DNA from: an uncultured Bacilli bacterium
Lineage (GTDB): Bacteria > Bacillota_I > Bacilli_A > ML615J-28 > CAG-698
Direction of reading: 5' to 3'
Length of the DNA: 64,000 bases
NCBI GenBank assembly: GCA_947627195.1
Contig: CANQVC010000001.1
Location: 99,671 to 163,670, forward strand
Under the pieces are notes generated by a model. That model had not been told where the DNA came from and ran no database searches. It saw only the letters and a program-made list of their open reading frames with translations. Of this stretch, positions 8,403-26,023 are shown piece by piece. The translations under genes and the position numbers were made by a program. Every line of letters starts with the position of its first letter. Position 1 is the first letter of the stretch.

Positions 8403-11400
8403 ATGAAGAAAAAATTTAAACGTATTATGGTGTTATTGTGCGCAATCCTTGTTTTCTTAACAGGTTGTAGTGTATCTGATGAACAAAAAGATGTAGAACA
8501 AAATAATCAACATATTACTCATTTAAATTTACAACAAGCTGATTTAATATCACAAGTAACAGATAATGTGAAATATCTAAATCCTGATTTACTTTATGAT
8601 ATTGAGGGACTAGATGATGATGATGAAATCAGTATTATTGTAACAATGAGTAATGAAGGATTAGCTGATGATTACTTTGAAAATTCATTAGGCTTTGAAT
8701 CGGTATCTGATTATACTAAAAGTAGTGTTGCGAAAATTGATGCAAATCAAATGTTGAAAGAGCAAAAAGAATTAGCAAACAAATTAGTAAACAAAGGTTT
8801 AATTTTTTCTAGTAAACATTCATATGTAACATTATTCAATGGCTTTTCCGCAACTACAACATTTGCTAATTATAAAAAATTAGTAAAAATGGGAATTGCT
8901 GAAAAAGTTTCAATATCTGAAGTATATGCAGCACCACAAGCGACTAGTAGCACTGGATATACAGCTGTTGAAAACTTAGTTGATGTTTATGAAACAGGAA
9001 TTTTTAATTCTTCAAGTGTTGAATATGATGGCGAAAATACAGCAGTAGCTATATTAGATTCAGGATTTGATATCCATCATACAGTATTCCAAAATATGCC
9101 TCAACATCCAATGATTACAAAAGAAGATGTTAGCAAAGTATTAAATACCACAAAAGCAAGTACATTCACATCAGGAATGAAAGTAGAAGATGTTTATGTA
9201 AATGCTAAAATACCTTATGCATATGATTATGCTGATAAAGATCCTGATGTAGCCCCATTTGATTCCGAACATGGAACACATGTTGCTGGTATCATAGGTG
9301 GTAAAGACGATGTCATTACAGGTGTTGCTATTAATACACAATTAGTATTAATGAAAGTATTTGGTGACTTAGTAACAGGAGCTAAAGAAGAAGATATTCT
9401 AGCAGCTCTTGAAGATTCTGTTACATTAGGTGTTGATGCAATTAATATGTCATTAGGATTTTCTTGTGGATTCTCTTATTTAGAAGATAATGATTATTTA
9501 AATTCAGTTTATAACAAAATAGAAGAAGCAGGTATTTCTTTAATTGTTGCCGCAAGTAATGATTATAGTTCTGCTTATGGTGGAGAAGAAAGCAATACTA
9601 GTAAAGTTACAAATCCTGATTCAGCAACAGTTGGTTCACCATCAACATATTATGCAGCATTATCTGTAGCTTCAATTAGTGGTGAAAAGAGTCGTTATAT
9701 TAAAGCAAATGATGGATATGTATTCTATTTCAACGAAGCAAATAATGCATCTGCTTTGCCATATGATTTTGTTGGTATGTTAAACTTACCAGAAAATAAA
9801 GATGTAACATATGATTATGTAACAGTACCAGGATATGGTAAAAAGATAAATTATTCAAATATCGATGTTAATGGAAAAGTTGCTTTAGTTAAACGTGGTG
9901 ATATTAACTTTGAAGAAAAAGCAAGAATTGCTTATGAAGAAGGAGCAGTAGCTTGTATTGTATATAACAATATTGGTGGAGATATTTTAATGTCAGCAGG
10001 AAATGATTTAAAAATACCTCTATGTTCAATATCTAAAGATGATGGTGAATATTTAGCTAGTAAAAATACTGGAACATTAACATTTAATTCAACATTCCTT
10101 GCTGGTCCATTTATGTCAGACTTCTCAAGTTGGGGACCAAATCCTGATTTAACATTAAAACCTGAGATTACAGCTCATGGTGGTAATATTAAATCATCAA
10201 TCCCTGGTGGTGGATATGATAAATTATCTGGTACATCAATGGCATGTCCAAATATGTGTGGAATTATTGTTTTAATTCGTCAATATGTAAAAGAAAAATT
10301 CCCACAATTATCTACACCAGAAATGGCAAGATTAACTAACAATTTATTAATGTCTTCAGCAACTATTGCCCTAGATCAAGCAGGTAATCCATATTCACCT
10401 CGTAAACAAGGTGCTGGACTTGCTAGTTTATTTAATGCAGTTAATACTAATGCATATTTAACAGTTGATGGATCTGATAGAGCTAAAATTGAATTAGGTG
10501 ATGATCCTAATAAATTAGGTGTTTATACATTAAAATTCACAATTAACAATGTTAGTGATAAACCATTATCATATGATCTAACAAATTATACAATGACTGA
10601 AAGTGTATCAACATCTGATCCAAGATATGTTGCGGAAAAGAGTTATATGTTAAACCCTGCTACATCATTTAATGTAACAGGTGATGGAACTAAAAATGGT
10701 AATACAATTACAATTAATGCTAATGGAAAAGTAAACGTTGAATATACATTAACATTAAATGAAAGTGAAAAACGTTACATTCGTACATCTTTCCCTAATG
10801 GAATGTATGTTGAAGGATTTGCTAAATTAATATCTAAAAATGAAGATAAAATTGATTTATCAATTCCATTCTTAGCGTTCTTTGGTGATTGGACTAGTGC
10901 ACCAATGTTTGATAAAACATTTTATGAAGTTGAAGCTGAAGCTCATGATGCTTCAATAAATGATGAAGATAAATTAAAAGCAGATTATTATGCTACAACA
11001 CCTCTTGGTACTTATTATTACAATTATATTATTCCTCTTGGCTCTTATGTTTATGTAATGGATGAAACAATGTATGATCCAATTCCAGCAACAGAAGAAC
11101 ATGCCGCATTAGGTTATAATGATGATTCAATTAATGGAATTACAACAATATATGCTGGTTTATTACGTAATGCCAAGAAAATGACAACAACAATTAAAAA
11201 CACATTAACAGGTGAAGTTGTCTATGAACATGTAAATTATAACCAATTTAAAGCCCATTATAGTGGTGGACAAATTCCAAGTTATGATTTAATCTATTTA
11301 ACAATCCAAGAATTAGGATTAGCTAATAATACTAATTATACATTAACAATGCAAGCTGAATTACCTTATGGTGATGGAGGTCTTGCTAACAATCAAAGAA

Positions 11401-14400
11401 ATACATTCTCATTTACATTCTATGTTGATTTTGAAGCTCCAACATTATATGATACTGAATATAGAGTTGAATACGATCGTACCTTAGAAAAGAATAGATA
11501 TTATTTAGATGTTTATGTTTATGATAATCATTATGCAATGTCTGTTCGTCCATTCACATTAGTTGATGGTGCATTAGTATCATTATGTGAAAATCCAACA
11601 CCAATTTATAGTGAAAAAGGTGCTGTATCAAAAGCAACTTTAGAAATCACAGATTATATGGATTTACTTCATTATGGAAGTGGTGGTGAAGGAGAAGATG
11701 GATTAACAAATGGTTTAGGAATTATGGTTGATGACTATGCCATGAATAGTAATTATTATTATGTATCATTCCCTGGAACTGATTCAGAAAACTTCTATTT
11801 TGAAAAAGATGGTGAAACAGTTACAGAAATTACTACTCATGTAGGTGAAGAAGTAGATTTAGGTTTAATGATGTCTTCAGATGATGAAGAATTAAATGAA
11901 GTATTAAATAACTTAAATGATAGAACTAAACCTTATCAAGATGAAATCAAATCAAAATTCATGTCAACTCTAAATTGGAAATCATCTAATCCAAGTGTTG
12001 TTCAAGTATTTAACGGTAAGATTGAAGGTATTGCTCCAGGAAGAGCAACAATTACAGCAACAAATGTTACTAATAGCGGTTATATATTTACTAAATCATT
12101 ATCAGTAATTGTTGAAGAAGCAACTCCTTCATCAATTAGTAAAGTGTCATATAAAAATAATTCATCAAGAATAATGCCAATGGCATTTAATAATAATGTA
12201 TCTTTAAAAGATATTAAATTTACATATTATGATACTATTGCCGCATTTATTGATGGACCTGAATATTCTGAAATTGGTGATACTGGTGATCGTAATTTCT
12301 TTACCGATTCAAGTACAATTTCATTTTATCCAAGTGAAAAAGTAAAATTAGCTTATGAAATAACTCCATGGAATTTAGATCCAAGTCGTTATCAATTGAC
12401 ATGGAGTTCTAGTAATCCAAGTGTAGCAACAGTTGATAATACAGGACTTGTCACAGCAATTAAAGAAGGAACTTCATATATTACTTTACGTATTGCTGTT
12501 AAAAATCCAACAACAGGTAATTTTGAGACATCACCTTTACTTGCTAGAGCAACTGTTGTTGTTAAAAATGAATTTATTGTTGAAGGAAGAATATTAACTG
12601 CTTATAAAGGAAATGGTGGAGATGTAGTTATTCCTGATGATTTAGGAATCATGTATATTGGTTCTTATGCATTCTCGTTGTATACAACTGATATGTCAAT
12701 AAAAGTTGATGAAAATGACTGGGATGCTAATAAAACAGCAGGAGGAAACACCTCAATTAAAAGTGTTACTATTCCTTATGATGTAACAGAAGTACAAAAA
12801 TATGCTTTTTATAATTGTCCAGAACTTGAAAAAGTTACATTCTTAAAGAGTCCTGATGATAAATCATGTAAGATTATTCGTGAATATGCCTTCATGAATG
12901 ATACTAAATTATCAAACATTAACTTAGAAAAAGTTCAAGTTATTGGTGCTAATGCTTTTAAAAATTGTGTTGGATTAAAAACTGTTGATTTTACTAATAT
13001 TTATGCTTTAGGAGAAGAAGCATTTAGTGGATGCACAGGATTACAAAGTGTTGATATAAGTACTCTAAGAAATGCATGGCCAAATGTATTCAAAGATTGT
13101 ACTAATTTAACATCATTTACATCTAGTGAATTTACTAATTTCTCCGAAGGTATGTTTACTAATACAGGATTACAAGATATCACAATATATTCTGATCGTA
13201 TTCCTGCTAGTACATTTGCTAATTGTCCAAATTTAGAAAATGTTACTATTCAAAATAATATTATTTATATTGGTGATAATGCTTTTGAAGGTGATAGAAA
13301 ATTAAATACAGTTACATTTAATGGAACTTGTGATTATATTTATCAATATGCCTTTAAAGATTGTACAGGTATGACTTCATTAATTTTACCTAATAGCCCA
13401 ATATCGTTTGAAATGTATGCATTATTAGGATGTAGTCAATTATCACAATTAAAATTCCAAGAAAATACTTATATTTTAGAAAATATGGGTGTATTACTTG
13501 AAGCATGTCGTTCATTAACAACATTTGAAGTTGATGCTAAAAATCAACATTACAAAGCAAATAATGAATTATTACTTGATGCAACAGGAAAAATAATAAT
13601 TCTTGCTGCTCCTGGATTTAATTATAATAATTATACAATTCCAAGTGATTATGATACAATTGGTGAAGGAGCATTTAGTGGTATTTCCACATTAAGAACT
13701 TTAAAATTTGCAGGTAATCCTGTAATTAGCCCTTATGCATTTGCGGAATGTACTTCATTAACAACTGTGACTTTACCAACTAATATTACATCAATTGGTG
13801 AAGGAGCATTTGAAGCATGTGTTGCATTACGTAACATCTCTAATTTAAAGAATGTGAAAGAAATTGGTGGACTTGCTTTTGCTAGTACTGCATTAGTTAC
13901 AATTGAAATTGGTGATGATACCAATGTATTAGATGGTGCATTCAGTCAAATTACAACTTTAAGAGCTGCTACATTTGGTAAAAATGTAACATTAGGTGAA
14001 GGTGCATTCTTTGCTGATACTGCTCTTGCAACTGTTAATATTAATGCTGATGGTATGTTACATATTAATGGTTATTGTTTTGCTAATTGTGTACGTCTAG
14101 CAACAATTGATTTGTCCCTTGCTACAGGTGAAATTGGGGATTATGCTTTTTATAATTGTCAATCATTAAGAGTAGCTCATTTAACAAATATTACTAAAAT
14201 TGGTGAATTTGCTTTTTCAGATTGTGTTAGTTTATCAACAGTTACAATTCCAATGGTAGAATCAATTGGTGATGCTGCATTTGGTGCAGGTAGTGCCGAT
14301 TCCACAAGTGGAACAGCAATTGCTAGTATAACATTACCTAATACATTAAAAACTTTAGGTGAAGCTGTATTCTTTGGCTGTCCAAATTTAACATCAGTTA

Positions 14401-16031
14401 CAATTCCATCTTCAATAGAAGATATGAAAGGATTTGTATTTGCTAATTGTTCATCTTTAGAAACAGTTATATTAGAAGATGGTATTACCTATATTCCTGA
14501 ATATACATTCTATATGGATCAAAGTTTAATTACTGTAACAGGCGGAAATATTCTAGAAGTAGCCGATTCAGGATTTTATGGATGTTTATATTTAGAAAGT
14601 ATCGATTTAACACATGCTCAAACTATTGGTATGGATGCATTTTATTCATGTCAAAGCCTTGTTGAAGTAGATCTACAAGAAGCAACATATCTAGCAGATG
14701 GTGCATTCTTTGCAGCAACTGATGTTACAACATTAAACATTCCTAAAGTTGAATATATTGGTCAACAAGCTTTAAGTAATATTGGTGTAAGATCAATAGT
14801 TATTCCAAATACAATTAAATATATTGCACCAACTGCTTTCTATGCTAATGAGAACCAAACATCATTTATCGTAATGATTAATGGTATGGCACTTGAAACA
14901 GGAATTATTAATGATTATGCATCTTTATATAATAGTGGTTTATATATTACAACTGAAAATGGTGGAAAAACATTAATTGCTTATCCTACAGGACGCACTG
15001 ATATTGAATATGTTGTTGAAGAAGGAACTGAAAGAATAGAAATTTATGCTGGTGCAGATAATTTATATTTACAAAAAATAATTCTTCCTGAAACATTACA
15101 ATCAATTGGTAATATGGCATTTTATGGATGTACGCATTTAGAAACAGTTGAATTTAGATCAACAGTTGCCCCAATATTAGAAGGTGTACCATATGGATCA
15201 CAAAGCGATTATACATATCCAGAAGATTCAAAAGTATATGAATTATTAACTAAATATTATGCTTTTAATGGTACATATCCATATTATTATGGACAATTCA
15301 AAGCAGTTGTTGGTACTATTTCTCCATTAAAAATAATTGTTCCATCTAATTTTGATACAAGTGGATTCGAATCAATTGAAGGTAAATATAGTCCTTCATC
15401 AAAAGATATGACAGGATTTAATCAATTGATGTATGCAATGTATTTTGATTTAGAAAATATGGAAGTCTCAACTCGTATAAGTAAAAATGCTACAACAATG
15501 GCATATTTACGTAATGTATCTTTAATTCCAAATATTGAAGATATTCAAATAACTGATGAAAAAATTATTCGTGATGCGGTAACAGCTTATAATGCTTTAA
15601 ATCAAAATTTATTAGATTTTGGTTATACACAACAACAATTAAACGAAATGCATAATAAAATGCTTCGTGCCCAAGATAAAGTAAAAGAATTAAAACTTGC
15701 TCGTGTTAATGAAAAATATGCTGACTTAGTTAAAGAAATCGAAGAATTAGGAACTGTATTTAGTTTAGATAAATATGATTTATACAAAAAAATAGTTGTT
15801 GAACTAGATTATATATCTAAATCTGATCAAGCAGATATGGATTTATCAAATGTTGATGCCTTTAAATTATCTTATCAAGCATATTTTAAGAACTTAAATC
15901 AAGAAGTTTCTAATATGACATTGATTAGTAATCAAACAACATCACAAATTATAGGTGCTGTTGCAACATCAGTAGCTCTAGCAACATCTGTTATTGGTGT
16001 AGCATTTATAATTAAAAAACATTGGTTTTAA
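8403..16031 (+). CDS. Cell-envelope subtilisin-like serine protease (S8 with PA-domain insert) fused to Big_2 domains, a long BspA-type leucine-rich-repeat region and a C-terminal TM anchor. Predicted lipoprotein, 2542 aa.
   Basis: Lipobox LTGCSV. Catalytic triad motifs AILDSGFD, HGTHVAGIIGG and GTSMACPNMCG. PA-domain-like VALVKRGDINFEEKARIAYEEGAVACIVYNN lies between the His and Ser motifs. Big_2-like SSNPSVVQV...GRATITAT and SSSNPSVATVDNTGLVTAIKEGTSYITL. More than 20 repeats of the form IG..AF..C..L..V.IP. C-terminal hydrophobic segment IIGAVATSVALATSVIGVAFII. The RBS AAAGGAG is 8 nt upstream. Confidence 0.8.
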   Translation: MKKKFKRIMVLLCAILVFLTGCSVSDEQKDVEQNNQHITHLNLQQADLISQVTDNVKYLNPDLLYDIEGLDDDDEISIIVTMSNEGLADDYFENSLGFESVSDYTKSSVAKIDANQMLKEQKELANKLVNKGLIFSSKHSYVTLFNGFSATTTFANYKKLVKMGIAEKVSISEVYAAPQATSSTGYTAVENLVDVYETGIFNSSSVEYDGENTAVAILDSGFDIHHTVFQNMPQHPMITKEDVSKVLNTTKASTFTSGMKVEDVYVNAKIPYAYDYADKDPDVAPFDSEHGTHVAGIIGGKDDVITGVAINTQLVLMKVFGDLVTGAKEEDILAALEDSVTLGVDAINMSLGFSCGFSYLEDNDYLNSVYNKIEEAGISLIVAASNDYSSAYGGEESNTSKVTNPDSATVGSPSTYYAALSVASISGEKSRYIKANDGYVFYFNEANNASALPYDFVGMLNLPENKDVTYDYVTVPGYGKKINYSNIDVNGKVALVKRGDINFEEKARIAYEEGAVACIVYNNIGGDILMSAGNDLKIPLCSISKDDGEYLASKNTGTLTFNSTFLAGPFMSDFSSWGPNPDLTLKPEITAHGGNIKSSIPGGGYDKLSGTSMACPNMCGIIVLIRQYVKEKFPQLSTPEMARLTNNLLMSSATIALDQAGNPYSPRKQGAGLASLFNAVNTNAYLTVDGSDRAKIELGDDPNKLGVYTLKFTINNVSDKPLSYDLTNYTMTESVSTSDPRYVAEKSYMLNPATSFNVTGDGTKNGNTITINANGKVNVEYTLTLNESEKRYIRTSFPNGMYVEGFAKLISKNEDKIDLSIPFLAFFGDWTSAPMFDKTFYEVEAEAHDASINDEDKLKADYYATTPLGTYYYNYIIPLGSYVYVMDETMYDPIPATEEHAALGYNDDSINGITTIYAGLLRNAKKMTTTIKNTLTGEVVYEHVNYNQFKAHYSGGQIPSYDLIYLTIQELGLANNTNYTLTMQAELPYGDGGLANNQRNTFSFTFYVDFEAPTLYDTEYRVEYDRTLEKNRYYLDVYVYDNHYAMSVRPFTLVDGALVSLCENPTPIYSEKGAVSKATLEITDYMDLLHYGSGGEGEDGLTNGLGIMVDDYAMNSNYYYVSFPGTDSENFYFEKDGETVTEITTHVGEEVDLGLMMSSDDEELNEVLNNLNDRTKPYQDEIKSKFMSTLNWKSSNPSVVQVFNGKIEGIAPGRATITATNVTNSGYIFTKSLSVIVEEATPSSISKVSYKNNSSRIMPMAFNNNVSLKDIKFTYYDTIAAFIDGPEYSEIGDTGDRNFFTDSSTISFYPSEKVKLAYEITPWNLDPSRYQLTWSSSNPSVATVDNTGLVTAIKEGTSYITLRIAVKNPTTGNFETSPLLARATVVVKNEFIVEGRILTAYKGNGGDVVIPDDLGIMYIGSYAFSLYTTDMSIKVDENDWDANKTAGGNTSIKSVTIPYDVTEVQKYAFYNCPELEKVTFLKSPDDKSCKIIREYAFMNDTKLSNINLEKVQVIGANAFKNCVGLKTVDFTNIYALGEEAFSGCTGLQSVDISTLRNAWPNVFKDCTNLTSFTSSEFTNFSEGMFTNTGLQDITIYSDRIPASTFANCPNLENVTIQNNIIYIGDNAFEGDRKLNTVTFNGTCDYIYQYAFKDCTGMTSLILPNSPISFEMYALLGCSQLSQLKFQENTYILENMGVLLEACRSLTTFEVDAKNQHYKANNELLLDATGKIIILAAPGFNYNNYTIPSDYDTIGEGAFSGISTLRTLKFAGNPVISPYAFAECTSLTTVTLPTNITSIGEGAFEACVALRNISNLKNVKEIGGLAFASTALVTIEIGDDTNVLDGAFSQITTLRAATFGKNVTLGEGAFFADTALATVNINADGMLHINGYCFANCVRLATIDLSLATGEIGDYAFYNCQSLRVAHLTNITKIGEFAFSDCVSLSTVTIPMVESIGDAAFGAGSADSTSGTAIASITLPNTLKTLGEAVFFGCPNLTSVTIPSSIEDMKGFVFANCSSLETVILEDGITYIPEYTFYMDQSLITVTGGNILEVADSGFYGCLYLESIDLTHAQTIGMDAFYSCQSLVEVDLQEATYLADGAFFAATDVTTLNIPKVEYIGQQALSNIGVRSIVIPNTIKYIAPTAFYANENQTSFIVMINGMALETGIINDYASLYNSGLYITTENGGKTLIAYPTGRTDIEYVVEEGTERIEIYAGADNLYLQKIILPETLQSIGNMAFYGCTHLETVEFRSTVAPILEGVPYGSQSDYTYPEDSKVYELLTKYYAFNGTYPYYYGQFKAVVGTISPLKIIVPSNFDTSGFESIEGKYSPSSKDMTGFNQLMYAMYFDLENMEVSTRISKNATTMAYLRNVSLIPNIEDIQITDEKIIRDAVTAYNALNQNLLDFGYTQQQLNEMHNKMLRAQDKVKELKLARVNEKYADLVKEIEELGTVFSLDKYDLYKKIVVELDYISKSDQADMDLSNVDAFKLSYQAYFKNLNQEVSNMTLISNQTTSQIIGAVATSVALATSVIGVAFIIKKHWF

Positions 16032-16043
16032 GGAGGTAAAAGG

Positions 16044-16691
16044 ATGAAAAAATTAGGTGTTTTATTAACATTAATTTTATGTTTCACATTAGTTGGTTGT
16101 AGCAGTAAAAAAGAAACTACAATTAATACTTTTATTGATAACATATATGCTTCAAACGATTCTTTTACATCTTACCAAGAAAGTGATGTTTTACTAGATA
16201 ATGAAGTAGAAGTTTATCATAAAGATATTACTTTTCAAATTGAAAGAGGAGAAGAAATTAAAACAACTTTTAATCAATATGAAAAGAAACTAAGTGATGA
16301 TATTTTATCTGAAACAAATTATGATGAAAAAACAACATCATATTATACAATTGGTAATCATAAATATGATACAACATATGGATTAAATACTGAATCAAGT
16401 TATCCTATTCCATCATATTTCTTTACATTCAATATAAAAGAAGATTATTTAACTGAACATAAACTTACCAAAGATGGTAAAACAATAACATTAAATGCTA
16501 ATGTGAAAAATGAATCAGTTAATGATTTCTTTGTAACATTTGGTATTGAATCAATTACTGATGTTGTTATTGAAGTTAAAGTTGTTGATAAGAAACTTTC
16601 TTCAATGAATGCTCAATATAAAACAACAACAGGATTTGTTGGTAATGTTAATATTACTTATGGATATGATAAAGTAACCATTGAACATTAA
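16044..16691 (+). CDS. Hypothetical lipoprotein
   Basis: Lipobox LTLILCFTLVGCSS. RBS GGAGG. No recognisable domain. Confidence 0.55.
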   Translation: MKKLGVLLTLILCFTLVGCSSKKETTINTFIDNIYASNDSFTSYQESDVLLDNEVEVYHKDITFQIERGEEIKTTFNQYEKKLSDDILSETNYDEKTTSYYTIGNHKYDTTYGLNTESSYPIPSYFFTFNIKEDYLTEHKLTKDGKTITLNANVKNESVNDFFVTFGIESITDVVIEVKVVDKKLSSMNAQYKTTTGFVGNVNITYGYDKVTIEH

Positions 16692-16704
16692 GGAAGTGTT
16701 GTGA

Positions 16705-17865
16705 ATGAAAAATAATATATTTAAAAAATATTTATTTCTATTGTTGACTATTCTTTCAATCTTTCTTCTAGTTGGATGTGTTAATAATGAAATTGATTAT
16801 TCTAAATACACAAAAGTTGTTTTTAAATTAGAAGGTGGAACATATTTAAATCAAAATATTGAAGAATATTCACAGCTTTATGAATTAGAAGATGATGAAA
16901 CAACTTATATTTATGATCCTAATGAAATAACTAAAGAACCAGTAATAACTAAAGATGGATGTGTTTTAGAAGGATGGTATAGAAGTAAAGTTGGTGAAGG
17001 TGATGATGCCGTTTATTCTGATAAATGGGATTTCACCAAATATAAAATGGGTAAAGAAGGTGTAACTTTATATGCTAATTGGGTTGTCCAACATAATTAC
17101 ACTTTTGATATTTATTATACTAATTCTGAAGGTCAAGATGTTCAAATTACTAATGGCTCTTATCAAGTAGAAGAAGGGGCAAAATTTGATGATTATCGAA
17201 AATATGCTGAAAAGTTTGGTACTGAAAAAGACATGACATTTGTTGAATTTTTAGATGCAAATGGCAATAAATGGGATGAAAATTTTGTTCATCCAGGTGG
17301 AGATGAAGATCTTAGTATTAAAGTTTATGCAAGATATATTCAAGGTAAATGGAGTATTGTTAAAACTGCTGAAGATTTAATTCTTGCAACTGACAGTATA
17401 TATTTAATGAATGATATTGATTTCGAAGGTCAAGAACTAAATTTTGCTAACTTTGTTAATAAGACATTTGAAGGTAATAATCATACAATAAGTAATTTTA
17501 CAATAAGTTATCAAGCAGAAAATATTGGACCTGATTTACTTACTGAAGAAGCTAATAGATTAAATATCGGTTTGTTTACTCGTATATATGGTTCAACAAT
17601 CCAAAATGTTAAATTCATTGAAGGAAAATGTGATGTTAACACAAGTTTTTCGAAAATAGCATTTATTCATGTTTCACCATTTGCGGTGGAAATAGAAGAT
17701 TCAACAATCCAAAATGTTGAATTTGAATGTAATGTTACAATAACACGTCTTCCTGAAAAATGTAGTGGATACGAAGTTCAAGAAAATCAAATGTATTACA
17801 AAAAAGATGATAAATCTACGGTTGAAGGAATATACCACGTAACAGTGGTATCTCTTGAAGCCTGA
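16705..17865 (+). CDS. Hypothetical lipoprotein with Flg_new-like repeat
   Basis: Lipobox FLLVGCVNN. Motif VLEGWYRSK...YANWV. Confidence 0.55.
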   Translation: MKNNIFKKYLFLLLTILSIFLLVGCVNNEIDYSKYTKVVFKLEGGTYLNQNIEEYSQLYELEDDETTYIYDPNEITKEPVITKDGCVLEGWYRSKVGEGDDAVYSDKWDFTKYKMGKEGVTLYANWVVQHNYTFDIYYTNSEGQDVQITNGSYQVEEGAKFDDYRKYAEKFGTEKDMTFVEFLDANGNKWDENFVHPGGDEDLSIKVYARYIQGKWSIVKTAEDLILATDSIYLMNDIDFEGQELNFANFVNKTFEGNNHTISNFTISYQAENIGPDLLTEEANRLNIGLFTRIYGSTIQNVKFIEGKCDVNTSFSKIAFIHVSPFAVEIEDSTIQNVEFECNVTITRLPEKCSGYEVQENQMYYKKDDKSTVEGIYHVTVVSLEA

Positions 17866-17876
17866 AAGGGGTAAAT

Positions 17877-20513
17877 ATGAAGAAAAAATTATTAATGTTT
17901 ATATTAATATGTCTTATTGCTTTCGTTGGTGGTTGTGGTTGTAATACTGAAAATACCGATAAACTTAAACCGAGCAAAACATATGACAATGAAGTTGATA
18001 CATTGATTATGTCATCTCAAGAATTAGATGGTGTATTCAATCCATTCTTCTCAACATCAGCTGCTGATGGTAATGTTGTTGGTATGACACAAATAGGTAT
18101 GTTAGGAAATGATGAAAGTGGAAATTATACATATGGTCCTGATGAACCAGTTGTTGTAAATGATTTAGGTATCGTTGAAGAAGGTTCAAAAGCTCAAAAT
18201 AACAAAACAACAACATATTATTTTGTTTTAAAAAGAGATGTTAAATTCTCTAATGGTTCACCATTAACAATGAAAGATGTATTATTTAATTTATATGTAT
18301 ATCTTGATCCTGTATATACAGGTTCATCAACAATCTATTCCACAGATATTGTTGGCTTAAAAGAATATCAAACTCAACAAGATGATCCTGAAGCTCAAAA
18401 AAGATTTAAAGACCAATTTGTTCTTGAAGCTAATCAAAGAATAAATAATATCGTTGCTGCGGCAAATGATATCTTTGATCAACATAAAGAATCAATGGAC
18501 TTAGATCAATTCAAACAATATTTAGCTGATTTTGATACTGATGGTCAAATGACAAAAGATTTAGATGCAGCTGTTGAATTATTCAAAGAAGAATTAAATG
18601 ATGATATGAAAACATCTATTGATACAGCTGATACAATTAAATTTACTAATAAATTTGGTACAGTACATGAAAATTGGTTAATTAGTGATGTGCAAGCATT
18701 CTTATACAATGAAAATTATATTTCCTACAATAAAGAAGAAGACAGATTAGAATCTTCATTAGTAACAAATGTTAGTGAATTATCAGAATGGACACAAGAA
18801 CAAGCAATTAATGCTATTATTTCTGATAAAATTCCTACTGATATTGCGGAAATATTAACATATTGGCAAACAGGTACAAAATTAAGAGAAAATTTAACAA
18901 ACGAAGCATTATCAGCATATAATGATGCTCATCCAGATGTTAAATATCCTAATATTTCTGGTATTCAATTTGCTAATAGAACTCAACCAGTTACATTTAG
19001 AAATGAAGAAGGAGTAGAAAAAACATATGGTGTTCCAACATATGCTGAAGATGGATCTGTTAATAATGATACTTATGAAGTATTAAAGATCGTTATTAAT
19101 GATGTTGATCCAAAAGCAATTTGGAATTTTGGCTTCTCTGTTGCTCCAATGTATTATTATTCAAGTCCTGAATTAATTGAAAAATTCGATTATTTCTCTA
19201 ATTTTGGTGTTAAACGTTCTGATCCTAATTTTATGGAAACTGTTGTTAAAAACAAAGATAAAATTGGTGTACCAGTTGGTGCAGGACCTTACCAAGCTAG
19301 TAAAGCATCTGGTGGAACTGATAATATTAAAGGTTCAGATTTTAAAGATAACAATATCATTTATTTCGAAAGAAATCCATATTATATTGGTGGAGCTCCT
19401 TTAATTAAAAAGATTCGTTTCCAAGTTGTTCCACAAAATCAAATGACAAATGCTTTATATACAAATTCAATTGATTATGTTGAACCAAATGCGAAAACAG
19501 AAATTATTAATGAATTAAATGGTAAAAGAGATCAAGGCTTTGTTAACCAAAGTGTAAGAACAGCTGGATACGGTTATATTGGTATTAATGCCCACTTTGT
19601 TCCTACTCTAGAAGTAAGACAAGTGATTATGCATTTAATCGATACTCAAGAAGTTGTTAACTATTATGGTTCTAAAGCAACAGCAATTTATCGTTCAATG
19701 TCACTTGAAAGTTGGGCATATCCTAAAAATTGTACACCATATTATCCATATTTATATGGTCCTATCCCAGCTGGATATGATAAGATGACATCATCTAAAT
19801 TAAATCCAGCATATAAAGAATTTGCTTTATCTAAAGGTAAAGGAACAGATGGTACTGCTACATTCACAGATGAAGAAGTAAGAGAATTTGTGAAATTACA
19901 AATTGAAACAGTTGCAGGCTATCGTTTAAATGGTAACGGTGTATATCAAAAAGGTAGTGATGTATTAAAATATACATTCACAATAGCAGGTGAAGAAGAA
20001 GACCATCCAGCATGGAATGCATTATATCATGCAGGAACAATATTAAATTCAATGGGATTCCAAATCAATGTAACAACAGATAAATGGGCATTATCTAAAT
20101 TAGCTAGTGGTGACTTAACTGTTTGGGCTGCTGCATGGGGTGGAACAATTGACCCTGATATGTACCAAGTTTACCATATGGAATCTAATGCAACTTCTGT
20201 TAATAACTGGGGTTATAAAGATATTAAAAATAATATTGGTGGTAAATATAATAGAGAATTAAGAATATTAGAAGAATTATCTGAAAAAATTGATGAAGGT
20301 AGAGAAACAACTGTTCAAAAAGAACGTATTGACATTTATAGTGATGCACTTGATTACGTAATGCAATTAGCTGTTGAACTACCTACATATCAAAGAGATG
20401 ACTTATTTGCATATAATGGCAATAAAATTGATGGAAATACTTTAAATCAAAATTGTACAGCTTATAAAGGATTAACAAGCGACTTACATAAAATATCATT
20501 AAAAATTAGCTAA
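17877..20513 (+). CDS. oppA: Oligopeptide ABC transporter substrate-binding lipoprotein (family 5 SBP, long Mollicutes-type OppA)
   Basis: Lipobox FVGGCGC. It sits immediately upstream of the OppB/C/D/F genes. The size (878 aa) is typical of long OppA proteins. RBS GGGG. Confidence 0.65.
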   Translation: MKKKLLMFILICLIAFVGGCGCNTENTDKLKPSKTYDNEVDTLIMSSQELDGVFNPFFSTSAADGNVVGMTQIGMLGNDESGNYTYGPDEPVVVNDLGIVEEGSKAQNNKTTTYYFVLKRDVKFSNGSPLTMKDVLFNLYVYLDPVYTGSSTIYSTDIVGLKEYQTQQDDPEAQKRFKDQFVLEANQRINNIVAAANDIFDQHKESMDLDQFKQYLADFDTDGQMTKDLDAAVELFKEELNDDMKTSIDTADTIKFTNKFGTVHENWLISDVQAFLYNENYISYNKEEDRLESSLVTNVSELSEWTQEQAINAIISDKIPTDIAEILTYWQTGTKLRENLTNEALSAYNDAHPDVKYPNISGIQFANRTQPVTFRNEEGVEKTYGVPTYAEDGSVNNDTYEVLKIVINDVDPKAIWNFGFSVAPMYYYSSPELIEKFDYFSNFGVKRSDPNFMETVVKNKDKIGVPVGAGPYQASKASGGTDNIKGSDFKDNNIIYFERNPYYIGGAPLIKKIRFQVVPQNQMTNALYTNSIDYVEPNAKTEIINELNGKRDQGFVNQSVRTAGYGYIGINAHFVPTLEVRQVIMHLIDTQEVVNYYGSKATAIYRSMSLESWAYPKNCTPYYPYLYGPIPAGYDKMTSSKLNPAYKEFALSKGKGTDGTATFTDEEVREFVKLQIETVAGYRLNGNGVYQKGSDVLKYTFTIAGEEEDHPAWNALYHAGTILNSMGFQINVTTDKWALSKLASGDLTVWAAAWGGTIDPDMYQVYHMESNATSVNNWGYKDIKNNIGGKYNRELRILEELSEKIDEGRETTVQKERIDIYSDALDYVMQLAVELPTYQRDDLFAYNGNKIDGNTLNQNCTAYKGLTSDLHKISLKIS

Positions 20514-20589
20514 AGGAGGGAGTATAAAAAGAAAGTATTATTTCAACAAACAAATATGCTTTTTGTATAGAAAACAAAGTATACGTTGA

Positions 20590-21618
20590 ATGTATTTTCT
20601 GGATATCATTATGTTAAAATATATTATAAAAAGATTATTGATATCAATACTCGTTCTATTTGGTGTTTCAGTTATCATTTATACATTAGTTAGAATGATG
20701 CCTAATGATTATGTTGATAGGAAGTTTGCTTCGCAATTATCTCAAGGAACTATTACTCAAGATGATATTGCAAGATATAAAGAATTATATGGAATTGGTG
20801 ATAAAAGTTTCAAAGGAATAATTGGTGGATATGCTAGATGGGCAGGAAATCTTTGTAAAGGTGAACTAGGAAATTCATTTAAATATGATAAACCTGTTGC
20901 TACTGTTATCGTTGATAATATGGGGATTTCCTTTGCCATTGCCTTAGTTGCCACAATTTTACAATTCCTCATTGCTATCCCTTTAGGAATATCGAGTGCT
21001 ACGCACCAATATTCCGTTCGGGATTATGCCGTAACCGTCTTTACGATGATTGGTTTATCTCTTCCAACATATTTCTTTGCGGCAATATTAATTAAGATAT
21101 TTGCTGTTGATTTAGGATGGTTCCCTTCTGTTGGACTTGTCAGTCCTGGAAAAACATTCCCAGAAACATTTGCAGGTTGGTGGTCTGAATTATTTGATAA
21201 AGTTCACCACTTAATACTTCCAATAACAGTATCTGTTTTACTTTCTATTGGTGGACTAATGCGTTACACTAGAACAAATACACTTGAAGTATTAAATGCA
21301 GATTACATTAGAACTGCACGTGCTAAAGGACTTTCTGAAAGAAAAGTAATTTATGTACATGCATTTAGAAATACAATGATTCCGTTAGCTACTTTATTAG
21401 CAGGAATTCTTCCATCATTATTTGGTGGAATGATGATTACAGAACAAGTATTTGGTATTGATGGAATTGGACGTTTAGCATATAATGCATTAAATGATGG
21501 AGATGTACCATTTGTCATGGGCTATAATATGTTCTTAGCTGTCTTAACAGTTATTGGTACTTTATTCTCTGATATTATGTACTCAATTGTTGACCCAAGG
21601 GTTAAATTAGATAAGTAG
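20590..21618 (+). CDS. oppB: Oligopeptide ABC transporter permease
   Basis: N-terminus MLKYIIKRLL. BPD-transporter permease signature region ...TARAKGLSERKVIYVHAFRN... The start is ambiguous: 20590 or the in-frame ATG at 20611. Confidence 0.85.
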   Translation: MYFLDIIMLKYIIKRLLISILVLFGVSVIIYTLVRMMPNDYVDRKFASQLSQGTITQDDIARYKELYGIGDKSFKGIIGGYARWAGNLCKGELGNSFKYDKPVATVIVDNMGISFAIALVATILQFLIAIPLGISSATHQYSVRDYAVTVFTMIGLSLPTYFFAAILIKIFAVDLGWFPSVGLVSPGKTFPETFAGWWSELFDKVHHLILPITVSVLLSIGGLMRYTRTNTLEVLNADYIRTARAKGLSERKVIYVHAFRNTMIPLATLLAGILPSLFGGMMITEQVFGIDGIGRLAYNALNDGDVPFVMGYNMFLAVLTVIGTLFSDIMYSIVDPRVKLDK

Positions 21619-21625
21619 GTGTCAT

Positions 21626-22672
21626 ATGGAAGATAAAAATACAGAAGTTGAAAAATTAACTGATGTTGATGAAAATTTTTCTGAAGAAAATACTTATCAA
21701 CAAATGAGTCCATTCCGTTTATTATTACGTCGTTTCTTTCGTTCAAAATTATCAATAGTTGGCTTAATAATGGTAATTGGATTATTCTTATTTGCCTTTT
21801 TAGGACCAGTTATATATGATAAATGGGGAGAAACAGAACAAGATTTAACTGGTGTTTTAAAAATAGAAGATTCAGATTATTTTTTATCTGATCCTAAAGG
21901 TGAAGAAGTTCATTTCCTTGTTCACATTGAAAAATATGAAAAATTAAACACCAAAGCCCCACCAAGTAAAGATCATATTTTAGGAACTGATACCCAAGGT
22001 TGTGATGTCTTTGTTCGTTTAATGTATGGTGGTAGAATTTCATTATTTATTGGCTTTATTGTTGTATTCTTAGAAACAATATTAGGAATATTATTTGGTG
22101 GCTTAGCAGGATATTTTGGTGGATGGGTTGATAATGTTATAATGCGTATTGTTGATATATTTAATTGTGTACCAACATTACCAATATTATTAATTGCCTC
22201 AGCCGTATTAAATGCTTTCCCTGATTTGCCTCAAAATACAAAAATATACTTTTTAATGATTATTCTTACAATATTTGGTTGGAGTGGTTGTGCTAGATTA
22301 GTTCGTGGACAAATTTTAAGTTTACGTGAACAAGAATATATTACAGCTACCGAAGTAATGGGCTTATCTACCGCAAGAAAGATATTTAAACATTTAATTC
22401 CTAATGTAATGCCACAACTAATCGTTTCAATGACATTAGGTTTAGGTAGTGTTATTTTATATGAATCTACTTTAAGTTATTTGGGATTAGGTGTTCAATT
22501 ACCATATGCTGCTTGGGGAACAATGATTGCCCAAAGTAATGATCCTGTCATTTTATCAAACTACTTAAATATGTGGTTACCTGCTGGATTTTTAATTGTT
22601 ATTGCTGTTTTAGGATTTAACTTTATTGGTGATGGTCTTCGTGATGCGATGGATCCAAGAGCTAAGAAATAG
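21626..22672 (+). CDS. oppC: Oligopeptide ABC transporter permease
   Basis: OppC/DppC-like membrane domain (GCARLVRGQILSLREQEYI). Position after oppB. Confidence 0.85.
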   Translation: MEDKNTEVEKLTDVDENFSEENTYQQMSPFRLLLRRFFRSKLSIVGLIMVIGLFLFAFLGPVIYDKWGETEQDLTGVLKIEDSDYFLSDPKGEEVHFLVHIEKYEKLNTKAPPSKDHILGTDTQGCDVFVRLMYGGRISLFIGFIVVFLETILGILFGGLAGYFGGWVDNVIMRIVDIFNCVPTLPILLIASAVLNAFPDLPQNTKIYFLMIILTIFGWSGCARLVRGQILSLREQEYITATEVMGLSTARKIFKHLIPNVMPQLIVSMTLGLGSVILYESTLSYLGLGVQLPYAAWGTMIAQSNDPVILSNYLNMWLPAGFLIVIAVLGFNFIGDGLRDAMDPRAKK

Positions 22673-22685
22673 ATAGGTGATTAAT

Positions 22686-23858
22686 ATGAATAAAAAAAAT
22701 AAAAATAAAAATTATCTATCTTTAAAAGAAAGTCGTAAAATATTAAAATATAATATTAAACAAATGAGATATTATGAAAGACTAAAGAAGAAAAAAGTTG
22801 ATCAATCTTATTTTGTTACAACAATGAAAGATCCTAATAATCTTGTGGAAATAGAACAATTAGAAACCCATTTCTTTACTGATAGCGGAACAGTTAAATC
22901 AGTAAATGGTGTATCATTTGATATTCCTAAAGGTCGAGTAGTAGGAGTAGTAGGAGAAAGTGGCTGTGGAAAAAGTGTCACATCATTATCAATAATGCAA
23001 CTAGTTCAAGCCCCACAAGGTCAAATTGTAGGTGGAAGTATTCGCTTCAATACTGATGACCTTGGATTGAATGAAAATGGTGAAAAATTAGCTTATGATA
23101 TTGTGAAAATGCCAATGAAAGAAATGTATAACGTTCGTGGAAAAGATATAACAATGATTTTCCAAGAACCAATGACATCATTAAATCCTGTTTTCACCGT
23201 AGGTTATCAATTAGATGAAGTTGTTTTTATTCATTATCCTGAAAAAACAAAAGAAGAAGCTAAAGAACATAGCATTGAAATGTTGAAACAAGTTGGTATT
23301 TCTATGCCCGAACGTGTCTATAAATCATATCCACATGAATTATCAGGTGGTATGAGACAAAGAGTTATGATTGCTATGGCTCTTTCAGGAAATCCCAAAT
23401 TAATTATTGCTGATGAACCAACAACTGCCTTAGATGTTACAATTCAAGCCCAAATATTAGATTTATTAAGAAAAATCCAAAAACAAACAGGTTGTGCTAT
23501 TATGTTAATTACTCATGATTTAGGAGTAATTGCTGAAACAGCTGATGATGTTGTTGTAATGTATGCAGGTCGTATTATTGAAAGAGGAACTGTTAGAGAA
23601 ATATTTAATAATCCTCTTCATCCTTATACAGTTGGATTACAAAAAAGTAAACCATTAATTAACACTAATACAAAAGAACCTTTATATTCTATTCCAGGTC
23701 AAGTACCTAACCCAATAAATATGCCGAATACATGTTTCTTTAAGAGTAGATGTTCAAAATGTATTGAAAAGTGTAATCATGAGTATCCACATGAAATTAA
23801 AGTGAGTGACACCCATTATGTTACCTGCTATTTATATGAAAAGGAGGATAACAAATAA
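22686..23858 (+). CDS. oppD: Oligopeptide ABC transporter ATP-binding protein
   Basis: Walker A GESGCGKSV, signature LSGGMRQR, Walker B IIADEPT. The track's start at 22677 is a GTG; the ATG at 22686 sits 5 nt after AGGTGA. Confidence 0.85.
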   Translation: MNKKNKNKNYLSLKESRKILKYNIKQMRYYERLKKKKVDQSYFVTTMKDPNNLVEIEQLETHFFTDSGTVKSVNGVSFDIPKGRVVGVVGESGCGKSVTSLSIMQLVQAPQGQIVGGSIRFNTDDLGLNENGEKLAYDIVKMPMKEMYNVRGKDITMIFQEPMTSLNPVFTVGYQLDEVVFIHYPEKTKEEAKEHSIEMLKQVGISMPERVYKSYPHELSGGMRQRVMIAMALSGNPKLIIADEPTTALDVTIQAQILDLLRKIQKQTGCAIMLITHDLGVIAETADDVVVMYAGRIIERGTVREIFNNPLHPYTVGLQKSKPLINTNTKEPLYSIPGQVPNPINMPNTCFFKSRCSKCIEKCNHEYPHEIKVSDTHYVTCYLYEKEDNK

Positions 23859-25768
23859 TGGAAGAACAAATTCATGTATTCACAAATCATGATGAAGTAA
23901 AAGAAATTTTTATCCAACTTGTTGATTCTTTAAGTGTAATTGGTTTATATGATAAAACAATTCAATATAATATCCAAATTAATTTAGATGAATTAAAAAT
24001 AATTGTTACAGAAAAAAAGAAAAAAATAGAGATTCATTCAGAAACAGATTATTTCAATTTAAAAGAATCGATATTATTTAATAAACAATTATCTTATATA
24101 AATTTTTCTAATGTTATCTTATTTAAAGATAAAATAGAAAATGCTTATCAAATATTATCATTAAATAAAGAATCACATTTACTTATTGAAGGAATGGGAA
24201 AACTAACAATTTTTAATGCCAATGATGATAATAATAAAGCTGATAATAAATACATTTTAGAAGTTAGAAATTTAAAGAAATATTTCCCATTACAAAAAAA
24301 TGTATTTGGTAAAGCAAGAGCATATTTAAGAGCTGTTGATAATGTCACATTTGGCGTTGAAAAAGGTAAAACAATTGGTGTAGTTGGAGAAAGTGGTTGT
24401 GGAAAAACAACACTTGGAAGAACTATTTTAAAATTGTATGATATAACAGGTGGCAAAGTATTTTTTGAAGGTAATGATATTACTGATTATAAAAAAAATG
24501 AAATGCGAAAATTACGTACATCAATGCAATTAATATTCCAAGATCCTTATTCAAGTCTTCCCCCAAGAATGACAATTGGTTCAATTATTGAAGAAGCAGT
24601 TAAAGTTCATAAAATTGTTCCTAAAGATCAAATTAAATCTCATGTACAAGCTATTATGAAACAATGTGGATTGCAACCTCAATATTATGATCGTTATCCT
24701 CATGAATTTAGTGGTGGACAAAGACAAAGAATATGTATAGCTAGAGCATTAGCTGTTAATCCTAAACTTGTCATATGTGATGAACCAGTAAGTGCTTTGG
24801 ATGTATCAATTCAAGCGCAAATTATCAATCTTTTAAAAGAATTACAAACAAAACTTGATTTAACATATGTCTTCATTTCTCATGATTTATCAGTTGTTAA
24901 ATACATAACAAATGATATTATCGTTATGTATTTAGGCAATATGATGGAAATGGCTGATACAGAAGAAATATTTAAAAATCCAATGCATCCATATACTCAA
25001 GCATTGTTCTCAGCTGTACCAATTCCTAATCCAGATGCAAAAATGAATCGTATAGTTTTAGAAGGTGATATTCCTTCACCAGTAAATCCACCACGTGGAT
25101 GTAAATTTCATACACGTTGTGCTAAATGTATGGACGTATGTAAAGTTGTTGAACCTGAATTCATGGAAATATCTACAGGTCATCATGTTGCATGTCATTT
25201 ATATAATTCTTCAATTATGAAAAATTTAACCGAATATCAAAATATTTATGAAACTATTCGTTTAGAAGAAGAAAGAAAAAATACGGAAGAAAATATAAAA
25301 GATCCATTAAAGATATTATTCTTAAATGTTTCGCAATTTCTTGTTCAAACTTGTAGCAACAAAGATGAAATTGAATTTATTGTTAAATTAGATGGTAACA
25401 AAATATGTGTTAGTGTAAAAAATGTTGAAGAAGACAAAGATTATGTAATTGAAAATGAAGATGATTTAGATAAAATGGTACATGATTTCTTAGATAAGAA
25501 TTATTTATCAACAAATAAAGTTTCACCAATTCAATCTGAAGAACAAATATATGAAATATATGATCAAGCCAAAAATGATAATGAATATGTTTATCATATA
25601 TATCGTAGTACTGAAGATAATGAGATTGTTGAAATAGCTAATCATGATGATAATATTGATGATTTAGATGATGAATCTATAGATAATACACATGAATCTA
25701 ATAAAAACGGACACGTTAAACGTAAGAAAAATAAAAAAGTTTTAATTCCCGTTAAAAAGAAAAAATAA
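23858..25768 (+). CDS. oppF: Oligopeptide ABC transporter ATP-binding protein with an N-terminal extension of about 130 aa and an acidic/Lys-rich C-terminal extension of about 190 aa
   Basis: Walker A GESGCGKTT, signature FSGGQRQR, Walker B VICDEPVS. The core OppF domain occupies only about residues 135-450 of 636. The RBS AAGGAGG is 10 nt upstream. Confidence 0.85.
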   Translation: MEEQIHVFTNHDEVKEIFIQLVDSLSVIGLYDKTIQYNIQINLDELKIIVTEKKKKIEIHSETDYFNLKESILFNKQLSYINFSNVILFKDKIENAYQILSLNKESHLLIEGMGKLTIFNANDDNNKADNKYILEVRNLKKYFPLQKNVFGKARAYLRAVDNVTFGVEKGKTIGVVGESGCGKTTLGRTILKLYDITGGKVFFEGNDITDYKKNEMRKLRTSMQLIFQDPYSSLPPRMTIGSIIEEAVKVHKIVPKDQIKSHVQAIMKQCGLQPQYYDRYPHEFSGGQRQRICIARALAVNPKLVICDEPVSALDVSIQAQIINLLKELQTKLDLTYVFISHDLSVVKYITNDIIVMYLGNMMEMADTEEIFKNPMHPYTQALFSAVPIPNPDAKMNRIVLEGDIPSPVNPPRGCKFHTRCAKCMDVCKVVEPEFMEISTGHHVACHLYNSSIMKNLTEYQNIYETIRLEEERKNTEENIKDPLKILFLNVSQFLVQTCSNKDEIEFIVKLDGNKICVSVKNVEEDKDYVIENEDDLDKMVHDFLDKNYLSTNKVSPIQSEEQIYEIYDQAKNDNEYVYHIYRSTEDNEIVEIANHDDNIDDLDDESIDNTHESNKNGHVKRKKNKKVLIPVKKKK

Positions 25769-26022: not shown

Positions 26023-26023
26023 C

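Follow-up and report, generated by a model that had tools for sequence, protein, structure and literature searches.

A cell-envelope-type protease with a leucine-rich repeat array and its linked Opp-type importer: a likely protein-utilization module of mostly uncultured gut bacteria

Lactic acid bacteria supply themselves with amino acids from external protein by means of cell-envelope proteinases (CEPs; e.g., PrtP and PrtS) together with the oligopeptide importer Opp, and the protease and opp genes of these bacteria are not known to lie at one locus. Here, we describe a locus of the same logic, in which external protein would be converted to oligopeptides and these taken up by an Opp-type ABC importer, within a 64,000-nucleotide stretch (contig CANQVC010000001.1, positions 99,671 to 163,670; hereafter the window) from an uncultured Bacilli bacterium. 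It encodes a protease of 2542 amino acids (aa), here called MEGA, which carries a BspA-type leucine-rich repeat (LRR) array and is followed by two small lipoproteins and a complete Opp transporter. We put the probability at about 65% that this block is devoted to breaking down extracellular protein and taking up the oligopeptides so released, with both the activity and the substrate read from comparative sequence analysis.

MEGA shares with the CEPs of lactic acid bacteria (PrtP, PrtB, PrtH, and PrtS) a subtilase (S8) catalytic domain with a PA insert, a following fibronectin type III (Fn3)-like domain, a long non-catalytic region, a predicted helical spacer, and a C-terminal anchor, and it likely also has their pre-pro region. 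However, where the CEPs have their “B domain”, MEGA has two Big_2 domains and more than 30 BspA-type LRR units, and its anchor is a transmembrane helix rather than one of the LPXTG or S-layer type, with an N-terminal lipobox in addition. In contrast to the PrtP and Opp genes, the protease and opp genes are contiguous here, an adjacency that is conserved, and the block contains extra conserved partners: the small lipoproteins lip215 and lip386, the 84-aa protein s84, and the 1510-aa lipoprotein W1510. The closest solved structures are those of the streptococcal C5a peptidases ScpA/ScpB and of SpyCEP (ScpC), which cover the catalytic, PA, and first Fn3 domains and whose catalytic triad aligns with that of MEGA residue for residue. 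These enzymes differ in that they are 1100–1650 aa long, LPXTG-anchored, without LRR arrays, and without linkage to Opp; each cleaves single immune mediators, and the similarity stops at approximately residue 860–890 of MEGA. The repeat type and the N-terminal cap motif of the array are those of the BspA-type LRR_5 proteins, including Tannerella BspA, Treponema TpLRR/LrrA, and HupY/LrrG, but those are stand-alone adhesins of a few hundred residues, while MEGA has three such modules behind a protease. Against the HupY model, MEGA gave partial coverage at 110 bits, with a cut-off of 1250 bits. The mycoplasma MIB–MIP immunoglobulin protease was also considered as an analogue and was rejected as a relative since MIP is not known to be an S8 enzyme.

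The protease and its parts are as follows, with positions counted from the first nucleotide of the window.

8403–16031, plus strand: MEGA, protease–LRR protein of 2542 aa
8403–8468, plus strand: signal peptide with lipobox L-T-G-C (Cys22), from sequence and hydropathy (hydrophobic at residues 4–27)
8469–9002, plus strand: putative propeptide, residues 23–200 (sub-threshold I9 match, AlphaFold topology, low identity)
9030–10418, plus strand: subtilase (S8) catalytic domain, residues 210–672 (Pfam Peptidase_S8, E 1.2e-38)
9057–9059, 9270–9272, 9558–9560, and 10236–10238, plus strand: codons of catalytic D219 and H290, oxyanion N386, and catalytic S612
9846–10055, plus strand: PA domain, residues 482–551, between the oxyanion Asn and the catalytic Ser (Pfam E 4.8e-14)
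10524–10874, plus strand: Fn3-like domain fn3_5, residues 708–824, directly after the catalytic domain (Pfam E 8.4e-11)
10983–11912, plus strand: family-specific conserved region, residues 861–1170 (55% mean pairwise identity, many invariant residues)
11913–12584, plus strand: two Big_2 Ig-like domains, residues ~1171–1394 (Pfam, two stretches, E 6.7e-15)
12585–15197, plus strand: BspA-type LRR_5 array, residues ~1395–2265 (LRR_5, 437 bits, eight stretches)
15198–15932, plus strand: post-LRR region and predicted helical stalk, residues 2266–2510 (identity 31–40%)
15945–16016, plus strand: C-terminal transmembrane helix, residues 2515–2538, followed by KKHWF (hydropathy)

The window has approximately 27% GC, coding sequence makes up 94% of it, and all of its called genes lie on the plus strand. 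Because TGA is the stop codon of 6 of the 34 open reading frames (ORFs), the standard genetic code applies, and a Mycoplasma-type code was ruled out on the same count. A 7.6-kb ORF in DNA of this composition, with hundreds of homologues, is far beyond chance. The frame and the extent of the module (8403–25768) coincide exactly with those given in a first-pass annotation made from the sequence alone, and its account of the protein was largely borne out. The Pfam domain scan and the alignments to proteins of known structure agree with a lactocepin- or C5a-peptidase-like S8 protease with a PA insert, and the Big_2 domains were found by Pfam. The LRR array, which had been put at more than 20 units, exceeds that number: three modules, each opened by the cap motif, span residues ~1395–2265 with units of 22–23 residues, which gives more than 30 units. 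The LRR_5 score of 437 bits compares with a family cut-off of 27.7 bits, and solved LRR_5 proteins matching the array include 4fs7, 4gt6, 4h09, and TpLRR 6mlx (E 2e-31 to 4e-18).

On the protease side, phmmer placed C5a peptidase, SpyCEP, and a cell-envelope proteinase as the closest solved structures (E 4e-71 to 7e-63, residues ~177–892), with individual alignments reaching residue 861–892. A profile built from 19 homologues gave E 2e-88 to 2e-81 over positions 204–860, and with this profile the PDB held no solved relative for positions ~860–1300. Likewise, no match to residues 861–1170 was obtained from Pfam or from PDB sequence searches, and Pfam assigned no domain to residues 2266–2510, which we read from the sequence as a helical stalk. 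The best NCBIfam model was NF040553 (the SGO_0316/0317 family), at 253 bits and thus below its cut-off of 1400 bits. MEGA passes only the generic Pfam S8 cut-off as a protease and reaches that of no named family.

While the fusion of protease and LRR array was initially thought to be unusual, it turned out to define a large family of conserved length. Among 5.8 billion proteins searched, those related to MEGA over its full length form more than 120 clusters; they are 43–65% identical and approximately 2,460–2,730 aa long, nearly all of the clusters fall within 2470–2530 aa, and the domain list is identical. Where these proteins have names at all, they are only “leucine-rich repeat protein” or “S8 family serine peptidase”. 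When one genome of each GTDB species was scanned, 530 matching stretches were obtained. The best 80 of these loci all carry an orthologue, which is almost always complete unless cut off by the end of the contig; their GC content ranges from 27% to 59%, and they were used for the locus comparisons below. Searching residues 860–1400 against 1.84 billion representatives yielded approximately 40 family representatives at 50% identity, a rough lower bound among the top 150; they are approximately 2450–2700 aa long and have this region at the same position, and the rest of the matches were unrelated Big_2 repeat proteins.

The records with matches are nearly all metagenome-assembled or otherwise uncultured gut or faecal genomes, with titles such as Anaeroplasmataceae, Mollicutes, Bacilli, Christensenellaceae, and Oscillospiraceae; a cultured carrier, Pumilibacter intestinalis CLA-AA-M10, is represented by locus L048. 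Every source genome whose title gives a habitat came from gut or faeces, with goat, deer, chicken, rabbit, mouse, and human as hosts. The nearest relatives of the window are in an uncultured Anaeroplasmataceae genome (L001) and an uncultured Mollicutes genome (L007). In the literature on LRR-fused proteases, CEP–Opp operons, RF39, Anaeroplasma, and Pumilibacter, we found no description of this protease–LRR family; for RF39, a phylogenomic study of Tenericutes goes no further than oligopeptide uptake in general terms (PMC7301438).

Several lines of evidence point to selection on catalysis. The motifs around the catalytic Asp, His, and Ser are in register with those of C5a peptidase 7edd and keep the subtilisin order, and the PA domain is in register with the PA insert of the same structure. 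In the multiple alignment, D219, H290, N386, and S612 are invariant among 19 full-length homologues and also among 28 locus-derived sequences, including those from genomes of approximately 50% GC, so that the alignment of the triad, on which the first-pass annotation had made its proposal depend, holds throughout. The S8 domain is also the most conserved part of the protein, with a mean pairwise identity of 67–74%, compared with 38% for the propeptide stretch, 36% for the central LRR module (the least conserved of the long domains), and 31% for the stalk. An invariant triad, oxyanion Asn, and motifs within the best-conserved domain argue for selection on catalysis, and the S8 domain is likely to be an active protease. 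The pairing of a conserved catalytic domain with a divergent central LRR module is as expected for a fixed enzyme with an adaptable binding module.

The two ends of the protein bear on how such an enzyme would be held at the surface. By hydropathy, MEGA has only two hydrophobic segments, at residues 4–27 and 2515–2538, and Cys22 of the lipobox is invariant among the 19 homologues. Between the signal peptide and the catalytic domain, a sub-threshold match to Inhibitor_I9 (E 0.13) was found, and residues 71–172 of an AlphaFold model (pLDDT 61–89) show the β-α-β-β-α-β order of subtilase propeptides. The full model of residues 1–905, built from a nine-sequence alignment, was too poor (pLDDT 51.6) for a fold search. 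Removal of the propeptide, as known from other subtilases, would take the lipid anchor away and leave the mature enzyme on the C-terminal helix alone, which we consider probable. Anchoring at both ends, as originally described, therefore fits the precursor, with its lipobox and C-terminal helix, but probably not the mature enzyme. No LPXTG motif was found in MEGA or at the C-termini of approximately 70 homologues. Nearly all complete homologues end in a hydrophobic segment and a K/R tail, and a sister clade (L001, L003, L004, L006–L009, L013, and L027) has the motif LPT(T/S)xV (LPTxxV) just ahead of this segment; the motif resembles a sortase sorting signal in decay. At this position MEGA reads NQTTSQ; the motif has been lost in the window protein.

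The genes that accompany the protease are the following; W1510 lies upstream of it, and the others follow it.

3621–8153, plus strand: W1510, lipoprotein of 1510 aa, lipobox LAAC (Pfam Big_3 only)
16044–16691, plus strand: lip215, lipoprotein of 215 aa, lipobox LVGC
16705–17865, plus strand: lip386, lipoprotein of 386 aa, lipobox LVGC (Pfam Flg_new)
17877–20513, plus strand: OppA, family-5 substrate-binding lipoprotein of 878 aa, lipobox VGGC (SBP_bac_5 E 5.6e-27, residues 457–772)
20590–21618, plus strand: OppB permease (BPD_transp_1 and BPD_transp_1_N)
21626–22672, plus strand: OppC permease (BPD_transp_1 and OppC_N)
22677–23858, plus strand: OppD ATPase (ABC_tran and oligo_HPY)
23858–25768, plus strand: OppF ATPase, 636 aa (ABC_tran 161–311, oligo_HPY 363–428)
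25768–26022, plus strand: s84, 84 aa, a single C-terminal transmembrane helix; its start overlaps the oppF stop codon

The Opp set is complete, since a family-5 lipoprotein, two permeases, and two oligo_HPY ATPases all carry their diagnostic domains. OppA passes the Pfam cut-off for SBP_bac_5 and has an insertion of approximately 290 residues between its conserved lobes (from ~168 to 457). Its match to the NCBIfam Opp4A model (residues 42–168) scored 63 bits with a cut-off of 650 bits, its match to a solved OppA (9p48) was weak (E 1e-9), and its weak NCBIfam matches include NikA and CntA. The true start of OppB is probably ATG 20611, judging from its sequence, which would give 335 aa beginning MLKYIIKRLL; 335 aa is the OppB length in most loci. 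OppF is enlarged by lineage-specific extensions of approximately 150 residues at the N-terminus and approximately 190 at the C-terminus, the latter of low complexity and rich in Lys, Asp, Glu, and Asn; its homologues are mostly ~350–450 aa, and tblastn coverage of the window OppF is approximately 0.5.

No Pfam or NCBIfam match was found for lip215, which is orthologous to a protein of approximately 185 aa, B186, encoded after the protease in related loci (hhalign against the B186 family, 99.1%, E 1.5e-18). Lip386, always directly upstream of oppA, was modeled by AlphaFold with high confidence (pLDDT 94.1) as a pair of beta-grasp B-repeat (Flg_new) domains with an all-beta domain at the C-terminus, and Foldseek matched this model only to B-repeats, via YwfG and the InlB B-repeat. 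Its family is small, with 126 unnamed clusters, about half of which are proteins of 561–575 aa that proved to be lip215–lip386 fusions. In P0149, for example, residues 1–208 match lip215 (E 1e-34) and residues 215–533 match lip386 (E 2e-71); ~50 others are similar, and the fusion occurs in many sister genomes, such as those of L003, L004, L008, L013, and L027. Such gene fusions are evidence that the two lipoproteins act together. A 903-aa Flg_new and GLUG lipoprotein encoded further downstream in the window (W903) has a weak profile link to the C-terminal domain of lip386. For s84, which is ~75–95 aa long across loci and has the motifs Y.DDGHTIYNMDV and KKE+RA.I.AAF..YLP ahead of its helix, family assignment gave nothing beyond a faint match to DUF3169; it could be a hitherto overlooked subunit of this type of Opp, or a regulator of it. 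W1510 is an orthologue of B1436 (hhalign against the B1436 family, 100%, E 9.5e-71), a protein of approximately 1400 aa whose gene closes the cluster in most related loci. PDB sequence searches with W1510, lip386, and the upstream protein W999 returned no relatives.

The linkage between protease and transporter is our principal new finding. Window proteins were compared with the 80 loci by tblastn, and those 44 that have flanks of 8.5 kb or more on each side were taken as assessable. In all 44 (27–59% GC), at least four of the five opp genes adjoin the protease gene on the same strand; lip386 is likewise present in 44 of 44, and s84 follows oppF in 40. Two gene orders account for these loci. 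Type A, the order of the window (11 of 44), runs protease, lip215, lip386, oppA–F, s84, and type B (33 of 44) runs lip386, oppA–F, s84, protease, B186, B766, B835, B1436. Because lip215 is the orthologue of B186, a small lipoprotein follows the protease in both. The four genes after the type-B protease occupy 17471–27195 in L033 and have equivalents in approximately 35 loci. B766 and B835 are distant paralogues of each other, and the only recognizable domains of B766, B835, and B1436, even in high-GC representatives, are Ig-like or B-repeat domains. Of these extra genes, the window lineage keeps only the counterparts of B186 and B1436.

In a neighbour-joining tree of 70 full-length proteins, the two gene orders form two deep clades, each of which mixes low- and high-GC genomes. 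Contig JAFQFT010000058 carries both types approximately 10 kb apart (L009 and L068), and L002 and L032 also represent both locus types in the same metagenome-assembled genome, each with its own protease. With two orders in two clades and both types on one contig, the pairing of protease and Opp has outlived rearrangement together with old paralogy or horizontal transfer; the pattern as a whole suggests old paralogy, horizontal transfer, or both. That a CEP-like protease with an adhesin-like LRR module is functionally coupled to a complete Opp importer is thus supported as strongly as comparative genomics allows. Beyond the protease-to-oppF block that had been proposed, the module also takes in s84 after oppF, and an orthologue of W1510 occurs in most related loci.

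The spacing of the genes fits a single transcription unit. From the protease to s84, the gaps are, in order, 12, 13, 11, 76, 7, 4, −1, and −1 bases; the first seven belong to the succession of two small lipoproteins and oppABCDF that had been annotated as closely spaced. Possible boundaries and signals are the following.

8232–8310, plus strand: hairpin (8232–8295) with a U-rich tail; −31.4 kcal/mol, z = −5.4, none of 200 shuffles as stable
8352–8357, plus strand: candidate −10 box TATAAT, read from sequence
8390–8395, plus strand: candidate ribosome-binding site AAGGAG before ATG 8403, read from sequence
26024–26065, plus strand: hairpin and U-run right after the s84 stop codon; −15.2 kcal/mol, z = −4.2, none of 200 shuffles as stable

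The first hairpin sits in the 249-bp gap ahead of the protease gene and has no match in Rfam. Most likely it terminates transcription of the upstream gene, in which case it would mark the 5′ boundary of the unit, but it may have a regulatory role. The second is probably the terminator at the 3′ end. A scan of 7800–26500 for terminator-like sites on the plus strand returned none, and there was no significant structure in the oppA–oppB gap (z = −1.6). A promoter scan was uninformative in this AT-rich DNA of 27% GC, with 143 sites compared with 143.5 expected. In type-B loci, the protease gene starts approximately 15–50 bases after s84, which makes co-transcription plausible in both gene orders. 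From these features, 8403–26022 is probably one transcription unit.

Combining these results, the system may work as follows. The 2542-aa protein would be exported and lipid-modified at Cys22, and the N-terminal propeptide would then be removed, leaving a mature enzyme tethered by its C-terminal helix and raised off the membrane by the helical stalk. Protein substrates or surfaces would be bound by the LRR array, with its more than 30 units, and by the Ig-like domains, and the CEP/C5a-peptidase-type domain would cut the bound substrates into oligopeptides. These would be captured by the large OppA and imported by OppBCDF. Lip215, lip386, and s84 may be accessory parts; their genes are placed between those of the protease and the transporter, and the proteins themselves may be placed likewise. 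A nutritional role, with peptides as the transported substrate, is what we infer from this arrangement, and the pairing of protease and Opp in every assessable related genome makes the system a probable amino-acid source of these mostly uncultured bacteria.

Several observations weigh against a dedicated protein-degradation and peptide-import system. OppA is very divergent, with scores that fall well short of all NCBIfam cut-offs. Nickel, opines, and oligosaccharides are further ligands of family-5 binding proteins, and a peptide substrate for this OppA is consequently read from the context. A small subclade of the protease family (L062 and L070) has no Opp in the 6.8–7 kb of upstream sequence available. 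With the promoter scan uninformative, there may also be an internal opp promoter. Compared with the lactococcal system, two elements are missing: no PrtM/PrsA-type maturase was found in the cluster by Pfam and NCBIfam, in which lip215 and lip386 likewise have no rotamase or PrsA domain, although such a maturase is not universal among CEPs; and no CodY box (AATTTTCWGAAAATT) with up to three mismatches is present in 8154–8402, while matches in the whole window (26, with 33.6 expected) are below chance. Of the likeness to PrtP and Opp that had been drawn for this locus, the coupling of protease and Opp therefore stands, with 44 of 44 loci and an intact triad, but no CodY-type signal of the kind known from lactic acid bacteria was found. 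Finally, the nearest solved relatives, C5a peptidase and SpyCEP, are not nutritional enzymes but narrow-specificity enzymes of immune evasion.

This last point, that C5a peptidase and SpyCEP are the best solved-structure matches, is also where a host-directed alternative begins. The LRR array could dock onto a host or microbial protein (e.g., a chemokine, complement factor, immunoglobulin, or mucin), the protease could make a limited cut, and Opp could salvage the fragments or be linked to the enzyme in some other way. Lactobacillus paracasei has a lactocepin that degrades chemokines, TpLRR and HupY/LrrG, BspA-type LRR proteins to which MEGA has partial matches, are adhesins, all of the habitat-titled genomes are gut- or faeces-derived, and the central LRR module is the fastest-evolving one. 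However, linkage to an importer in 44 of 44 loci, kept through a change of gene order, is hard to explain for an immune-evasion enzyme, and the catalytic domain is highly conserved while the hosts are very diverse. We consider a primarily host-directed role unlikely, and the host-directed and feeding roles are not mutually exclusive. It is also conceivable that MEGA is primarily an adhesin, with an S8 domain that serves in self-processing or shedding of the ectodomain or is a catalytically silent scaffold. Two thirds of the protein consist of binding-type domains (Fn3, Big_2, and LRR_5), and some streptococcal C5a peptidases also act as adhesins. The invariant triad, oxyanion Asn, and motifs, and the S8 domain as the most conserved part, make this improbable, and the Opp linkage would be left unexplained.

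The remaining alternatives concern what the transporter carries. In Bacillus, Enterococcus, and Streptococcus, Opp imports signalling peptides, and the locus could be a peptide-signalling or -recycling device in which the protease matures or degrades a secreted signal or cell-wall peptides and Opp imports the product for sensing; s84 and the accessory lipoproteins, which have no assigned function, would leave room for this. However, the conserved cluster contains no RRNPP-type receptor, pheromone-like small ORF, or regulator, and an enzyme of 2500 aa that carries over 30 LRR units would be disproportionately large for signal maturation, which makes such a device very improbable. Equally improbable is a transporter whose ligand is a metal chelate, an oligosaccharide, or some other non-peptide substrate of family 5, in a neighbourhood that is simply a shared island of surface proteins. 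The divergence of OppA, with its large insertion, sub-cut-off scores, and weak NikA and CntA matches, would fit this, as would a region rich in surface proteins without known function. Yet Opp4A among the families and OppA among the structures remain the best matches, the OppC_N and oligo_HPY domains are present, and the gene conserved beside the transporter in all genomes encodes a protease rather than a glycosidase or a metal-related protein. Degradation of extracellular protein coupled to oligopeptide import consequently remains our preferred explanation of the locus.

A more speculative extension of this explanation is that the block, including the Ig-domain proteins present in most lineages (W1510/B1436, B766, and B835), is physically assembled around the ABC transporter as a surface “protein utilisome” and is the main nitrogen-acquisition organ of the lineages that carry it. 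The LRR array would then capture the substrate, and the accessory lipoproteins would dock the protease onto OppA, channelling peptides into the importer. We hold this idea only tentatively. The organisation is that of the Sus-like utilisomes of Bacteroidota, in which a surface-tethered depolymerase, binding lipoproteins, and the cognate importer are likewise encoded in one conserved block. However, the parallel is no more than an analogy, given the unrelated proteins, the different cell envelope, and an importer that is TonB-dependent there and of the ABC type here. If true, the block would be a Firmicute counterpart of these systems, directed at proteins.

Other genes of the window provide the wider setting. 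Upstream of W1510, an ORF of 999 aa (W999, 414–3413) begins with MLGTWYEGED and has no signal peptide and no Pfam or PDB match; its homologues reach at least 1230 aa in L002 and at least 1614 aa in L007, and the start may be mis-called, or the copy truncated or frameshifted. Profile comparison ruled out W999 and W903 as counterparts of B766 or B835. Downstream of the block, 26166–38992 encodes a CitMHS transporter, a GH9 glycosidase, two LtaS-like sulfatase-family proteins, a NUDIX protein, and W903. A purine riboswitch (39101–39201, 76.6 bits) precedes a run of plus-strand ORFs at 39467–52619, which we take to be a purine-biosynthesis operon. The region 52866–61674 encodes a VWA protein, a PP2C-domain protein, a Ser/Thr kinase, and, after these, a 1596-aa protein in which DUF4011, a Upf1-like helicase, and REase_MTES_1575 are combined. 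This large protein matches PDC-S37, a candidate defence model of PADLOC (E 1.7e-192), and also Hhe; the region is probably a defence island.

The CEP family is extended by these proteins well beyond the lactic acid bacteria and streptococci, and both the predicted anchoring by a lipobox plus a C-terminal helix and the putative targeting by a BspA-type LRR array are new for such an enzyme. Families that had no function attached to them (lip215/B186, lip386, s84, B766, B835, and B1436) now have a context. The amino-acid supply of the gut lineages that carry the locus is poorly known, and the protease–importer block offers a testable hypothesis for a core nutritional trait, in which a large surface enzyme could act on dietary or host proteins; the cultured carrier P. 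intestinalis CLA-AA-M10 makes experiments possible. While the locus does not represent a new principle, it is a large and strictly conserved module through which widespread gut lineages probably acquire nitrogen.

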